In this document: in pieces, positions 1,046 through 58,782 of the stretch
Layout of the letters: the number at the start of each line of letters is the position of its first letter
Numbering within the stretch: the stretch's first letter is position 1
Source: Eledone cirrhosa
Taxonomy: Eukaryota
Length of the DNA stretch: 64,000 bases
Direction: 5' to 3'
NCBI GenBank assembly: GCA_964016885.1
Contig: OZ024746.1
Coordinates: 74,524,001-74,588,000, forward strand
Made by a program: the position numbers and the translations under genes
Notes under the pieces: generated by a model
What the model was told of the DNA's origin: nothing
The model's database searches: none
Seen by the model: the letters and a program-made list of their open reading frames with translations, nothing else

Positions 1046-1420
1046 TAGTATATGCTGGTTGTTTACCGACACCTCAGTATGCAGATTGGAGCACTCGACT
1101 AAATACGCAGGTTAGTTTGGATACTCCGGAGTAATGTAAACTAAGATAATTAAGTCAAATATTTAAAATTTGGCTTCATTTATTAAAGGTGTACTGCTAT
1201 ATATATCATATAATTCCAGTTCGTGAGAGAAATAACAACCCAACCAGGAACTGGGCAAATCGGAGTATTGACGGAGTTAAAACCTCAACAACATGTGTAC
1301 CTGTCTCTACCACACCAATTCGGACTGCCTGAAGAGGTCACAGCCAAGGATGGCTGTCACCGAAATATATATAGCAGTACACGAAGCCAAATTTTAAATA
1401 TTTGACTTAATTATTTTATT
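1046..1420 (+). mobile_element. Non-autonomous PLE-derived mini-element between (TA)n tracts: hammerhead plus an inverted copy of its 3' segment
   Basis: Flanked by (TA)n. 1146-1206 is the reverse complement of 1365-1414 apart from an 11-nt indel containing AATAAA. Hammerhead at 1324-1378. Confidence 0.7.
1324..1378 (+). ncRNA. Type I hammerhead ribozyme (minimal, PLE-type)
   Basis: ACUGC-CUGAAGA-GGUCACAGCC aaggau GGCUGUCACC-GAAA-UAUAUAUA^GCAGU. Stem I is 5 bp, stem II 9/10 bp, loop III palindromic; predicted cleavage after 1373. Confidence 0.88.
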
Positions 1421-1501
1421 TTATATATATATATATATATATATATATATATATATATATATATATATATATATATATATATATATATATATATATATAT
1501 A

Positions 1502-3637
1502 TATTAATTCAAAATATTAATAAATGTAGACATTCAGGTAATCAAAATATATTTTATTATATATATTTCGGAGGTACTGTGCTGTTTTTTCAGTACGTCC
1601 TCATCAGATAAAATACATAAATTGATGTATGACATACGTCAACTGTGCTGATGGTTTAATTCCAGTCTTGGCAGTGATTAATTACAACAAAACTCAATAT
1701 TTATATACCATAAGTACTAACATGACAAACTAAATATAATGGAGAGGGTGAGTAGGAGAAAGTGTAGAAAAAATAAATACATAAATAAAATAAATAACTA
1801 CATAAAAACCTAAGTACATAAATGTTAAATACTTAAATATTTAAAAATGTAAATATCCGTATTAGAGAAAAAACACAAATGAGAGAGAGAGAGCTAAATA
1901 GAAGAGAAAGGGAAAAGATAAGGAGATGAAGATAAAAACAAAGAGAGGGAGATAGAGATGGTAGAATATATATATACCACCACCACCAAAACCACCACAG
2001 CACACATCGTTATATGTCTACCATCCTACACCCGCAACCTTACTACCCCATGTTCCCTCTGCCCACCTTAACCTACAACCCCACGCAAAATTCGATCCTG
2101 TAAATGTACTGTCGCACACACCACCACCGCCACCACTAGATACATCCACATACTTCAACAATCATTAACATCATTAACATCATCAACACATATCATCCCT
2201 CACTCCCAGAACGACTGTGTTACATCTGCCCTCTCCATCTGCTTTACCCTGTAACCCACCGTAACATCTGATCATGTAATCATATTGTTGAACATATCAC
2301 CCCATCACCACCACCATGACCACAAAACACATCGCTATACGTCCACACTTTTTCCCCCCGCGTTCCCTATGTCACCTTTTAACCTGTAACCCATCGAATT
2401 ATTCGATCCTGTATATTTTTGTCGCTCAGAACTCCACCACCACCACGACCACAAGACACAACTCCATACCTCAACATTCATTAACTTCATTAACATCGCC
2501 AACACATACCTTCCCTCTCGAACCAACGCAAGTGTGTGTGTCTGTGTGTAAGTATTTTTATATATGTGTGTGTGTGTATATATATACATATATATATATA
2601 TATATATATATATATATATATATATATATATATATATATATATATATATGTGTGTGTGTATGTATATCTGTGTGTACGTGTATGTGTGTATATCTATGTG
2701 TGTATCTGTGTATGTATGTGTATGTCTATATGTACAACACCATCTCCATTGGCTCTCACCCTCCCTCCATCTTTGTACTACGCCACCCCCACCGATACTC
2801 CCCCTCTCTACGCGCGCATGCACATATATGTGTGTGTATATATGCATATAGTTATATGTACGTGTGGATGTATGTGGGCGCGTGTATGTGTGTGTATATA
2901 AGTGTGAATGTATATAAGCCAGTACATATGCGCATGTATATGTCTACAACGTAATTGTCAGACTAAGAGTGTCTAGATATGTATCTCCCCATGGACCAAC
3001 ACATCCACCACACTACCACAAAAGCCACTACCATAAACAACAACACCACAACCACATCCACTCAATAACCAGCCACCCTATACGCCAACCTGTCTACCGA
3101 CAATCCGCCACCCCCACACCACAGCCCATCCCAGTCAGCGACCGTCACCACCATCTTATCATCACATCCACCCCCACATACACTACAAGCGAAAGTCAAT
3201 CCGCCACCCCCACACCACAGCCCATCGCAGCCAGCGACCGTCACCAACATCTTATCATCACATCCACCCCGACATACACTACAGGCCAATACATCCCTAT
3301 GATTTTTTTCCACCAATCAAAACAACTCATATTGTACAACTTATGAACTTCTGACTTTATCACATAGCATGTATTTCATTTTCTTATACCATTTTAAAGG
3401 GTCCGTCGAGCTGCCGATTATTGAGTCGGGTAAGATCGATACAGATCGAACCATGAGCTGATCAGAGGTGAAACACGCGTCACCTACCAATAAATGTAAT
3501 GAAGGAGTAACCAATCGTCCTTGTTATCCTCTCAATATATTACACTCTGTATAGCTCTACACCTCAACACAGAAGTGAATCTAAACATCGAGTGCTCACC
3601 CGGGTGAACCTGCAGTAACTCCAAGTTACACTCCCTA
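1502..3637. mobile_element. Composite low-complexity insert between (TA)n tracts with PLE pseudo-LTR remnants at both ends
   Basis: Minus-strand hammerhead at the left end. A GAAAC-ACGC-GUC...AATAAA remnant at ~3470-3495. Internal diverged direct repeats (~2000-2200 vs ~2322-2520; 3101-3188 vs 3197-3283). Confidence 0.4.
1550..1615 (-). ncRNA. Type I hammerhead ribozyme
   Basis: Minus strand: UAUUUUAU-CUGAUGA-GGAcGUACUG...CAGUACcUCC-GAAA-UAUAUAUA^AUAAAAUA; 8-bp stem I. Confidence 0.85.
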
Positions 3638-3795
3638 TATATATATATATATATATATATATATATATATATATATATATTAATAAGAGGAATTCCAACT
3701 TTGTCTGATTTACTCGTTTTATTTACAATCCTTTAAGATATATAATGGTATTATAATGAAATAGTATGATAGAATATTAAATTCTAAGTGTTAAT

Positions 3796-3834
3796 TGAAC
3801 AAGTACTTTCATGCTTTCGCAATCTTCAGGTTCA
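3796..3834 (-). ncRNA. Type I hammerhead ribozyme (left-arm copy)
   Basis: Reverse complement of 3917-3955, identical sequence. Confidence 0.75.
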
Positions 3835-3916
3835 TATTATCTGGTGACAGTCAAGTTTGCAATTTTCAACAATTTTCACAGTTGAAAATTGCAAACTTGA
3901 CTGTCACCACATATTA

Positions 3917-3955
3917 TGAACCTGAAGATTGCGAAAGCATGAAAGTACTTGTTCA
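3917..3955 (+). ncRNA. Type I hammerhead ribozyme (39 nt, minimal)
   Basis: UGAAC-CUGAAGA-U UGC GAAA GCA U-GAAA-GUACUU^GUUCA. Stem II is capped by a GNRA loop; AAGUACUU palindrome in stem III. Confidence 0.75.
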
Positions 3956-56212: not shown

Positions 56213-56271
56213 GTTTATTTCAATTCTCTTCAAAGATTTCGGCCAATGCGACAGTAAAAGAATCATTATCT

Positions 56272-56457
56272 TGGCAGTATACGTAGATGGTCGGGGGCCA
56301 TGATTTGCAGCATAGTTACGGCCCTTTATGATCTGAGTTCAAATCCTTCCGAGGTTAACTTTGCCTTTCATCCTCACGGGGTTGATAAAATAACGTACCA
56401 GTAGTGCACAGGGATAATTGCTGGCCTTGTGTCAAAAGTAGAAACAATTATTATTAT
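56272..56457 (+). mobile_element. tRNA-SINE
   Basis: TGGCAGTAT...GAGTTCAAATCC...core...(ATT)n. Confidence 0.85.
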
Positions 56458-58019
56458 TTATTATCAAGTGGAGAATTATGGTAGAGTATTCTATGAAAGA
56501 CAGGTGAGAACTACGAGATTCACGAAGCTGAATGGGCCTACTTTAACTATGCATTTATAAACAAGCAGAAAATAAATCAGGTAAGAATACTGTAAAGTGC
56601 TTTGGTACGACAAAGTAATCCGGGTCTTATGTGGGACTTTCTTTGAAATTACAATAAGGTGCTGTCCCCTCTTGTAATGTAACGTTTTCTGTTTATTGCC
56701 TATATTGTTGTGGCCAATATTTTCCCTTTATTCACGTCCCGTTAACTTTATTCGATACCACATATTTTGTTTTTTTCTTCGTCTTTGTACTGTCGCCAAA
56801 GTCTTGAACCCTTATAGCCAATAATATAAATTATCATTATTATTATTATTATATGCCGGATTTTTTTGTTTTATTTTTTGGTATCCTTTCTGTTGGCAAC
56901 AAACGAGATACCTTATCTTGTCATTCGTTTACAGTGCAATGATTCATATAGACTTCATGCCAAAACTGTTTCAGATATTTCGGAATTTGTCTTTACACGG
57001 CATAAATATCATATATATGTATATGTATATATATATATATATATATATATATAATATATATATATATATATATATATAATATATATATATATAAAATATA
57101 TATATATAATATATATATAAATATATATATATATAATATATATATATAATATATATATTATATATATATATATATATATATATATATATATAATATATAA
57201 TATATATATATAATATATATATAATATATATATATAATATATATATATATAGATATATAATATATATATATATATATATATATATATATATATATATATA
57301 TATATATGAATATATATGCATATGAATATATATGCAGACACCCACAATAATATACAAGTTATGTATATATAAATTTATCTATATATATAAATATGTAAAC
57401 ATATATAGCCATACAGTCATATAGAAATAGAAATGTATTTCCATATTATGTTTATGGTTAACGGCATGCATTTCTTCTGCCCACTTTTTTCATGACTCCC
57501 TGACACACACACACTTACTTTCCCTCTCGCTTTCTTTCTCTTTCTGTCTGTTTTATTTTCATTCATTTCGCCAGTATATTTTTCTTTCACCAAACATGTA
57601 CATACACACATGTGTGTGTGTTTCTGTATGCTTGTGTGTGTATATGTGTGTGTGTGTGTGTTTATGTTTGTATGTATTAAATTGAATATTGTTCTTACTA
57701 GTCTTTTTATTAGTGGCTTCTATTACATATATCTTCGCACACATAGAGATATACACGCACATTATATATATATATATATGTATATATATAAAAAAAAACA
57801 TGAGAAGAAAGAATACTGCGTGGTTGCACATGGGTTACATATGATAAAAATAGTCCTGTGTCAGTGATTTTCCAACCTTCATTGGTATTTCATCGCTTTA
57901 AAAATCATATACCTCCAGTTGGTGCGAGCAATAGCTAAATAAAGCTATTGAGACAAGTAAATCGCGTAAAGCGGGCGAGACAAGTAAACAAACATAGAAG
58001 GATTGATAGCAAATATATA

Positions 58020-58200
58020 TAACAAAGAATAAACCAGGTGGCCGATAACGCACCAGGGTACTTGATACTTAAGGTAGTAGAGTGGGTAATAGTTAAAGAG
58101 TCGGGACCCCTGTGGCTGAGCCAGCCGAACTGGCCTAGTTCGGACCTAGCTGTCGAAATGGCCGGAGCTCGGCCGCCGGGGTCCTGACGCTTTTCCTATA
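58020..58200 (-). mobile_element. Hairpin-plus-tail mini-element, copy 3
   Basis: Reverse strand: TAGGAAAAGCGTCAGGACCCC...TTTCGACAGCTAGG...GGGGTCCCGAC..TATTACCCACTCTACTACCTTAAGTATCAAGTACCCTGGTGCGTTATCGG. Confidence 0.78.
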
Positions 58201-58480
58201 TATATATATATATATATATTGTAGGACGAATTCGATATAAATAGCGAAGAGTTTAGACAATTCAGTCCGTGGGACGAGTTATTTATAATCAGTTACAACA
58301 GTGGCATACGCATTTATCTAAGTCTTCATTTCAGTATGTCACACTAAATGAATTGGTGTTAAACCCAAACAAACTTAAGTGTTTGTGCATGCCACTATTG
58401 TATGTGGTTATATATATATATATATATATATATATATATATATATATATATATATATATATGTATATATATATATATATA

Positions 58481-58782
58481 TATATTTATTAAAATAACAG
58501 ATTAAAGTTTAAGCAAAGAATCGCTGCTTTCACCCTTAACGGGATCTTCTGAAACTAACAAAGTCAATCTGTAAACGCAGAGCTGGATATTTCAAAAAAC
58601 GTTGCAACCGGAGGAAGACAGGAAGACGATACTTTGGTTAAGGGTGAAAGCAGCGATTCTTTGCTTAAACTTTAATCTGTTATTTTAATAAATATTTGCT
58701 CTACGGTTCTTATATATTTGATATATATTTATCCTTATCGAGCCCTCTTTGGATTTTAGTCTTTAAATTTATTATTATTACT
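58481..58782. mobile_element. Fold-back mini-element with ~59-bp arms, a decayed hammerhead and a right-hand tail
   Basis: 58481-58540 is the reverse complement of 58637-58695; minus strand CAGAAGA-UCCC guuaa GGGU-GAAA (core U changed to A). Confidence 0.7.

Follow-up and report, generated by a model that had tools for sequence, protein, structure and literature searches.

Tailed palindromes in the (TA)n tracts of Eledone cirrhosa as probable Hydra-clade Penelope-like elements and short derivatives, with copying probably primed by both cut strands

The stretch of Eledone cirrhosa DNA analyzed here, 64,000 nucleotides (nt) of contig OZ024746.1 (assembly GCA_964016885.1, forward-strand positions 74,524,001 to 74,588,000) and hereafter called the window, raises the question of what kind of element leaves within (TA)n tracts a palindrome that is followed on one side only by an unpaired tail, and of how such an arrangement is built. 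An initial annotation had recorded this layout at nine loci and had read the small ones as miniaturized products of Penelope-like elements (PLEs). Our analysis suggests that the nine loci are Hydra-clade PLEs and short derivatives of them lying in (TA)n tracts, and that they were probably built by reverse transcription starting from both cut strands of the target.

The window is AT-rich, with a guanine-plus-cytosine content of 21-46% per 2-kb bin, and is crowded with microsatellites (133 tandem-repeat rows); the genome to which it belongs measures 2.99 Gb. Inverted repeats were searched for with seeds consisting of inverted 14-mer pairs of non-simple sequence within 4 kb. This search yielded 803 pairs and 13 axis bins with at least 12 seeds, whereas each of 20 block shuffles of the window gave 11-44 pairs and no axis bin of that size. 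The recorded order of (TA)n, palindrome, one-sided tail and (TA)n was present at all nine loci. The nine insertions, together with a solo copy, are listed below; a hammerhead-like core is defined as CUGANGA, a pairing helix II, GAAA and a helix I of 5-12 bp.

1046 to 1421, minus strand: family G insertion; tail 1046-1138 (reverse complement, 93 nt, left side), span 1139-1421, with a short tail-linked arm from 1139, a long inverted arm to 1421 and a hammerhead-like core at 1329-1365 (+)
3681 to 4117, plus strand: family E insertion (locus 3676); arms 3681-3870 and 3881-4070, each with a hammerhead-like core; tail 4071-4117 or longer (at least 47 nt), then (TC)n and (TA)n
5251 to 5410, plus strand: solo 5'-truncated copy related to family G, between two (TA)n tracts; hammerhead-like core 5318-5355, no inverted arm
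11942 to 12122, plus strand: family A insertion (locus 11940); palindrome 11942-12041, tail 12042-12122 (81 nt)
25631 to 25822, plus strand: family B insertion (locus 25625); two 57-nt arms, each a hammerhead-like unit, in a span of 25631-25743 with a 1-nt axis near 25688; tail 25744-25822 (79 nt)
27343 to 30573, plus strand: 5'-truncated copy very probably of a Hydra-clade PLE (locus 27341); inverted arm 27343-27860, tail-linked arm 29998-30483, tail 30484-30573 (90 nt); hammerhead-like cores at 30385-30425 (+) and from 27441 (-)
41464 to 41876, minus strand: family D insertion (locus 41461); tail 41464-41558 (reverse complement, 95 nt), arms 41559-41710 and 41720-41871, each with a hammerhead-like core
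48544 to 48737, plus strand: older, diverged family A insertion (locus 48542); palindrome 48544-48655 (80% complementary), tail 48656-48737 (82 nt)
58022 to 58198, minus strand: older, diverged family A insertion (locus 58020); tail 58022-58094 (reverse complement, 73 nt), palindrome 58095-58193 (77% complementary)
58487 to 58790, plus strand: family F insertion (locus 58481); inverted arm of about 150 nt and tail-linked arm of about 54 nt in a span of 58487-58690, tail 58691-58790 (100 nt)

On the side without the tail, the palindromic span begins 0-5 nt from a (TA)n tract at every one of the nine loci; beyond the tail, the tract is again (TA)n at eight, and (TC)n followed by (TA)n at 3676. 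Between the arms, complementarity is lowest at 58020 (77%) and highest at 3676 and 25625 (97%); in the largest element the arms match at 98% over 27335-27506/30320-30491 and then at 87-89% out to 27859/29998. Two parts of the original description need to be amended. The sequences had been called largely unrelated, but the loci 11940, 48542 and 58020 belong to one family (A); moreover, the spacer that had been placed between the arms is, at 1046 and 58481, the surplus of the longer of two unequal arms.

Inverted repeats between TA flanks are what would be expected of miniature inverted-repeat transposable elements (MITEs) derived from DNA transposons with a TA target, for example of the Tc1/mariner type, which might gather in (TA)n tracts and whose TA duplication would be invisible there. 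However, 47-100 nt remain unpaired at one end at all nine loci, so that the true ends are not inverted repeats; the tail and arm together represent the end block of an element encoding a reverse transcriptase (RT) and a nuclease, solo 5'-truncated copies exist, and no transposase partner was seen. Since one end of the insertion is unpaired, MITEs of the DDE type, whose terminal repeats had been named in the initial annotation as the finding that would overturn a PLE origin, are excluded as we read the loci, and we consider a DNA-transposon origin very improbable. Helitrons, characterized by 5'-TC and 3'-CTRR ends and a short subterminal hairpin, were also considered and rejected, the insertions of family A beginning with GG, ending with GTT and lacking those three hallmarks.

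It might also be argued that palindromes beside long (TA)n tracts, being hard to assemble, are artefacts of assembly or of fold-back reads. However, each layout is found again on many chromosomes, in copies that have diverged in sequence and lie between flanks of their own; contigs built from short reads (three runs of one sample) span the arm/tail junction of 48544-48737, where they show no difference, and connect the tail with 2.6 kb of unique flanking sequence; and raw restriction site-associated DNA reads from three samples of a second study match the tail of family B as well as its two arms. An artefact therefore appears to be a practically negligible explanation.

The identity of the elements is best approached from the largest of them, 27343-30573, which embeds the remnant of an open reading frame (ORF) at 28426-29147, interrupted by a single in-frame stop and a single change of frame. 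Translated, the frame 28426-28881 together with its continuation gives ...CNCRNKSNCPLNNNC...IVY...YVG...R...ENC.LC...CKH. The GIY-YIG ORF remnant of a PLE that had been reported here is supported, by motifs read by eye, as far as the nuclease part is concerned, the RT part being missing from this copy. Used as a query against the genome, the nuclease piece gave 54,046 candidates (here and below, genome copy numbers are first-look candidates), of which 150 were scored, with 84-100% identity and open frames of up to 741 amino acids. Three fuller relatives (L043, L044 and L045) carry ORFs of 597, 631 and 628 amino acids, in which GGLYRDD stands upstream of the nuclease part in one frame, the R, E and N residues being read by eye. 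A CxCX5C linker (CNCRNKSNC) occurs in the window copy, in L043-L045 and in L047-L048, and a DKT motif (KSDKTNN) in L044, L045, L046 and L048; ENCALC and CKH, that is CxxC and CxH, are found, and the absence of CCHH was judged by eye without a reference alignment. The only copy reaching far enough towards the N-terminus, L046, has RRLRWRAF near its ATG, i.e., RWR and not RWK. The Atlas neighbours of the ORF, which carry RVT_1 and GIY-YIG, provide a lead only.

These traits may be compared with the Hydra clade as portrayed in PMC8557442, for which that account gives a C-terminal GIY-YIG nuclease, a CxCX5C linker, DKT replacing DKG, an RWK motif, no CCHH, a possible CxxC/CxH, canonical hammerheads, insertion into (TA)n and a length below 3 kb. 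The copies described here share with it CxCX5C, DKT and the (TA)n target; a putative RT followed by a GIY-YIG-like nuclease, CxxC/CxH near the presumed conserved E and N, and hammerhead-like cores within the terminal block would also fit it. They are unlike it in having RWR instead of RWK in the one copy that extends to this motif and, in L045, a length of about 4.2 kb (3566-7791), of which about 2 kb is 3' untranslated region. On the whole, judged by its motifs, we file the element at 27343-30573 with high confidence as a putative Hydra-clade PLE.

The coding copies also reveal what the tail is. Let X be the block at their 3' end. L045 consists, in order, of (TA)n, 165 nt that repeat the final part of X in inverted orientation, the 5'-truncated ORF, the 3' untranslated region, X with a hammerhead-like core, a 90-nt tail and (TA)n. 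On the coding strand of L044 and L046, X is followed by the tail, ATATAT, a leader of about 45 nt and the ATG. Because the X-tail block thus precedes the ORF, the tail is the stretch that follows X in the tandem form of the unit, in which X acts as a pseudo-long terminal repeat (pseudo-LTR). This is in agreement with Pen2a_Av, whose tail likewise continues the sequence after the pseudo-LTR in the description of PMC3846280. The tail of every family starts with a TA-rich stretch, and ATATAT follows the tail in the full unit. Five of the seven tail families contain GAG(T/C)(A/G)C at 24-51 nt into the tail, where about 0.09 occurrences per tail would be expected by chance; the tails of families A and B can be aligned with each other. 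The coding copies, too, carry TTGAGTGC in their tails. On the reverse strand of L046, at about 2503-2750, another hairpin-plus-tail mini-element, belonging to a different family, lies in (TA)n directly upstream of the long PLE copy.

The link of the nine loci to PLEs that had been put forward is upheld by the Hydra-clade nuclease ORF of the largest element, by the arm-plus-tail block upstream of the ORF in L044 and L046, and by the hammerhead-like cores in the arms of families B, C, D, E and G; the same motif search found no recognizable core in the arms of families A and F. It had been left open whether the small elements propagate as units; they do propagate as families, with 650 to 2,496 candidates each, the best 40 being scored for every small-family search:

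Family A (locus 11940): 2,496 candidates; full-length matches at 84-88% identity
Family B (locus 25625): 2,292 candidates; full-length matches at 97-99% identity
Family D (locus 41461): 1,913 candidates; full-length matches at 92-96% identity
Family E (locus 3676): 650 candidates; full-length matches at 94-99% identity
Family F (locus 58481): 1,125 candidates; the exact arrangement of the window in only 6 scored places
Family G (locus 1046): 2,131 candidates; full-length matches at 80-87% identity

The 57-nt arm of family B is a hammerhead-like unit in its entirety, with the palindrome axis at the 5' edge of helix I. Among the relatives of its core (L011, L013, L045 and L080), the predicted helix II stem (UUUC/GAAU) is kept while the tetraloop varies (UAAA, UUUU, AUAC, AAAC and UCCC), which is the pattern expected of a conserved stem-loop. 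Taking at least 80% of alternating TA in a 20-nt flank as the criterion, a TA flank was found on at least one side of 26/30 copies of family A, 17/20 of B, 11/12 of D and 9/12 of E, against a window background of 3.3%; it was present on both sides in 13, 10, 3 and 5 copies, respectively. Solo 5'-truncated copies without an inverted arm (L106 and window 5251-5410) count towards retroelement behavior. As judged from their sequences, the small families are short and non-coding, have the end structure of PLEs and lie in (TA)n tracts.

A further question concerns the unit that is copied. The initial annotation had proposed comparing the hairpin centers across copies, and this comparison showed them to be variable in families A, D and E and partly in B, which makes it likely that the palindrome forms anew at each insertion. 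The 30 copies of family A exhibit about 18 axis configurations, the commonest of which occurs in 6 copies. The inner end of their non-tail arm falls at unit position 1 in 23 copies, at 2 in four and at 6-7 in three, the tail-linked arm starts at positions 1 to 7 in 5, 2, 2, 7, 3, 7 and 4 copies, respectively, and the joint holds 0-5 extra letters or a 1-nt overlap between the arms. All 12 copies of family E have different axes, with up to 18 extra letters, whereas their arms are 94-99% alike, and several configurations occur among the 12 copies of family D. In family B, which is very young, a single axis is found in 14/20 copies and the other six vary there, against just 6 asymmetric differences among the 1,040 site-pairs of the arms.

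The arms of single copies also share private changes. In family A, 20 of the differences are symmetric, i.e., present in both arms (15 substitutions and a 5-nt deletion), and 113 asymmetric, where about 1.1 symmetric ones would be expected; the corresponding figures are 6 and 32 (about 0.1 expected) for family D, and 13 and 15 (less than 0.1 expected) for family E. Indeed, both arms of the window copy at 11942 lack the same 5 nt relative to family A, L027 bears an identical 3-nt insertion in both arms, and L014 and L023 have a common arm variant on different axes. Because the axis varies and the arms share private changes, the unit copied would be one arm plus the tail and not the hairpin; at insertion, a template with a single arm probably served for both of them.

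The opposite possibility is that the whole hairpin is inherited, the axis differences arising from later instability of the center and the symmetric changes from conversion between arms. Palindrome centers are known deletion hot spots, and 39 scored copies of family B match over their full length, axis included, at 97-99% identity, the commonest axis being shared by the 14 copies mentioned above. Such an inheritance is difficult to reconcile with the 12 different axes of family E beside arms so alike, with axis variants that include insertions of up to 18 nt and not deletions alone, and with the occurrence of one arm subfamily on different axes (L014 and L023). We therefore regard it as improbable.

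If one arm and the tail are what is copied, how does a palindrome arise from them? The lengths of the arms are informative in this respect. They are markedly unequal in three cases, measuring 54 and about 150 nt at 58481, about 70 and about 210 nt at 1046, and 165 nt and about 4 kb in L045. Of the 30 copies of family A, 24 have a non-tail arm that exceeds the tail-linked one in length, two have equal arms and four a shorter non-tail arm. The non-tail arm has its outer end at the X/tail border in 25/30 copies of family A and in 12/20 of family B, the remaining 8/20 of the latter reaching 7-13 nt into the tail. A tail on both sides was observed in a single copy each of families A (1/30), D (1/12) and E (1/12).

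Snap-back, one of the routes initially proposed for the small elements, would have one nascent cDNA, or an antisense RNA as in PMC3846280, prime itself and yield arm, turn and arm. The perfect palindrome of family B with its 1-nt axis in 14/20 copies speaks for it, as do the private changes common to both arms of a copy, and in PMC3846280 self-priming is argued from palindromes at inverted junctions. In addition, an inverted duplication of ORF sequence (28310-28389/28486-28566) lies exactly at the 5' truncation point of the ORF in 27343-30573; it looks like a fold-back joint, in a copy that also bears the large inverted arm. Nevertheless, the arms produced by folding back must be symmetric about the turn, and the very unequal arms of 58481, 1046 and L045 contradict snap-back of one cDNA as the general mechanism. 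Furthermore, fold-back of a sense cDNA predicts a longer tail-linked arm, which is the shorter one in 24/30 copies of family A, and a complete fold-back would leave a tail on both sides, which only the three copies just mentioned show. Fold-back is thus in our opinion unlikely, although it deserves to be kept in mind.

Because the arms are unequal, we favor two copying starts over a simple snap-back. The template would be an RNA that terminates in X-tail and either leads into UA repeats or adjoins them. Of the two cut strands of the (TA)n target, one would start synthesis at the distal, UA-flanked end of the tail; the other would do so at the border between X and tail, which is rich in UA, and the cDNA started there would be devoid of the tail. 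Synthesis of both cDNAs would proceed towards the RNA 5' end, and a head-to-head joint with 0-18 nt of surplus or overlap would connect them. In the short families the two cDNAs would reach the same end, giving equal arms; in the longer elements they would stop independently, giving unequal ones. The propagating unit would then be one arm plus the tail, about 135-250 nt, and not the hairpin. As for this two-start mechanism taken by itself, our judgement is evenly divided.

Several observations weigh against the reading of the loci as Hydra-clade PLEs and derivatives built from two starts. Pfam gave no family at E ≤0.1 for three ORF pieces of the window copy and two ORFs of about 630 amino acids, and no Rfam hammerhead appeared among the 150 listed of 175 whole-window E-value matches, or in narrow scans of 41540-41890 and 30280-30580. 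Since neither database gave a call, motifs recognized by eye, regular expressions and minimum free energy folds are the basis on which the ribozyme and the nuclease are assigned. The hammerhead spacers of families C and D measure 20-31 nt, versus 7-17 nt in the descriptor given in PMC8557442, and copies of the L045 type exceed the figure for the length of the clade. Sampling the best 40 per family favors complete copies, and conversion between the arms of a palindrome could also yield symmetric changes. Which arm is the longer differs by family, and the extra axis letters of family E were read as an extension of the tail-linked arm. Finally, 82 in 100 of the raw reads placed on family B continue into unlike sequence, mostly at the axis; as most reads run on past it, the arm of family B also occurs within longer elements, and the inner end shared by its copies may represent a preferred stopping point and not the end of the RNA.

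One may speculate further that a 57-nt arm and a tail of about 80 nt represent the whole cis requirement for the enzymes of Hydra-clade PLEs, that TTGAGT(A/G)C, conserved in the tail, is the sequence recognized, and that hairpin transcripts cut in their loop might free an arm-plus-tail RNA, with its 5' end at the axis, to serve as a new template; the ribozyme would be dispensable, because family A is devoid of it. We consider this minimal-unit reading doubtful. If it were true, the small families would be 'retro-hairpin' elements that renew themselves and, as the retro equivalent of MITEs, record every step of PLE integration.

Some neighboring features of the window complete the picture. A palindrome at 4208-4480, about 90 nt from the family E insertion, has arms of about 104 nt at 93-94% and (TA)32 exactly at its axis; it was rejected as a tenth member, its arms being single-copy DNA found nowhere else in the genome, and is a local inverted duplication centered on a microsatellite and not a mobile family. 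A shorter palindrome (62364-62427, within 62328-62464) is flanked by (AG)n instead of (TA)n and corresponds to several sub-threshold Rfam microRNA families. Tandem repeats of 152-188 bp occupy 6392-7738, the units themselves containing TA and CA microsatellites, and an open stretch at 5436-5600 (...RDRDRWRELV...) presumably resembles the C-terminal end of the RT ORF of a long interspersed nuclear element (LINE).

As to the significance of these elements, the integration of PLEs and the origin of their inverted or tandem ends with a one-sided tail are unsolved issues, and PMC8557442 expresses the need for an in vitro system. Thousands of tiny copies represent a natural data set, each recording two start points and one joint, and the families define a minimal template for an in vitro assay. 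The elements sit in the very tracts that make the genome of E. cirrhosa so rich in microsatellites. They are, as had been anticipated for MITEs, prone to mislabelling, either as MITEs or as microRNA hairpins; of the 175 sub-threshold Rfam matches in the window, nearly all of the 150 listed are hairpins of microRNA families.

Among known systems, one close to the priming scheme proposed here is the twin priming of LINE-1, responsible for 5' inversions, in which both strands of the target prime on one RNA and the resulting cDNAs are joined head to head. The mechanism suggested for the E. cirrhosa elements would share with it the two strands priming one RNA and the head-to-head joining; it would differ in that both copies span the same 3' segment, giving a palindrome and not an inversion with deletion, and in that a fixed distance of 47-100 nt would separate the two starts.

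As for the final structure, nuclease-bearing PLEs are described in PMC8557442 and PMC3846280 as forming inverted 5'-truncated copies with a one-sided tail of 30-40 bp and a bias for microsatellites. The elements analyzed in this work share with that architecture the inverted copy on the 5' side, a tail at one end that continues past the pseudo-LTR, frequent 5' truncation and AT-rich or microsatellite targets. They are unlike it in the length of the tail (47-100 nt versus 30-40 nt) and in the existence of small families made up of arm and tail alone, present in hundreds to thousands of copies. An association with this kind of target has also been reported for penaeid shrimp, in which the expansion of Penelope is tied to long (AT)n tracts (PMC7878876).

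Non-autonomous derivatives of PLEs, in tandem or pseudo-LTR form, are described in PMC8557442 and in bioRxiv 10.64898/2026.07.22.740005. The Chlamys families such as MRC1 (PMC8557442) and the animal non-LTR retrozymes (bioRxiv 10.64898/2026.07.22.740005) resemble the small families in being short and non-coding, in having a PLE terminal block, often with a hammerhead, and in presumably being copied in trans. Both groups are nevertheless reported as direct pseudo-LTR or head-to-tail tandem forms, whereas those of E. cirrhosa are dispersed, single, palindromic insertions with a one-sided tail, and family A is without a recognizable hammerhead core. The head-to-tail hammerhead arrays that, together with circular RNA, mark the animal non-LTR retrozymes were not seen in the window, the copies of which are single palindromic insertions. 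No description of miniature hairpin-plus-tail derivatives of PLEs was found in the literature searched, which did not cover the supplements of PMC8557442 (Hydra families and hammerhead calls). Hence, while the layout and the (TA)n targeting are already in print, the miniature families of high copy number, with palindromes that are probably rebuilt at each insertion, are the new element that E. cirrhosa adds to these systems.

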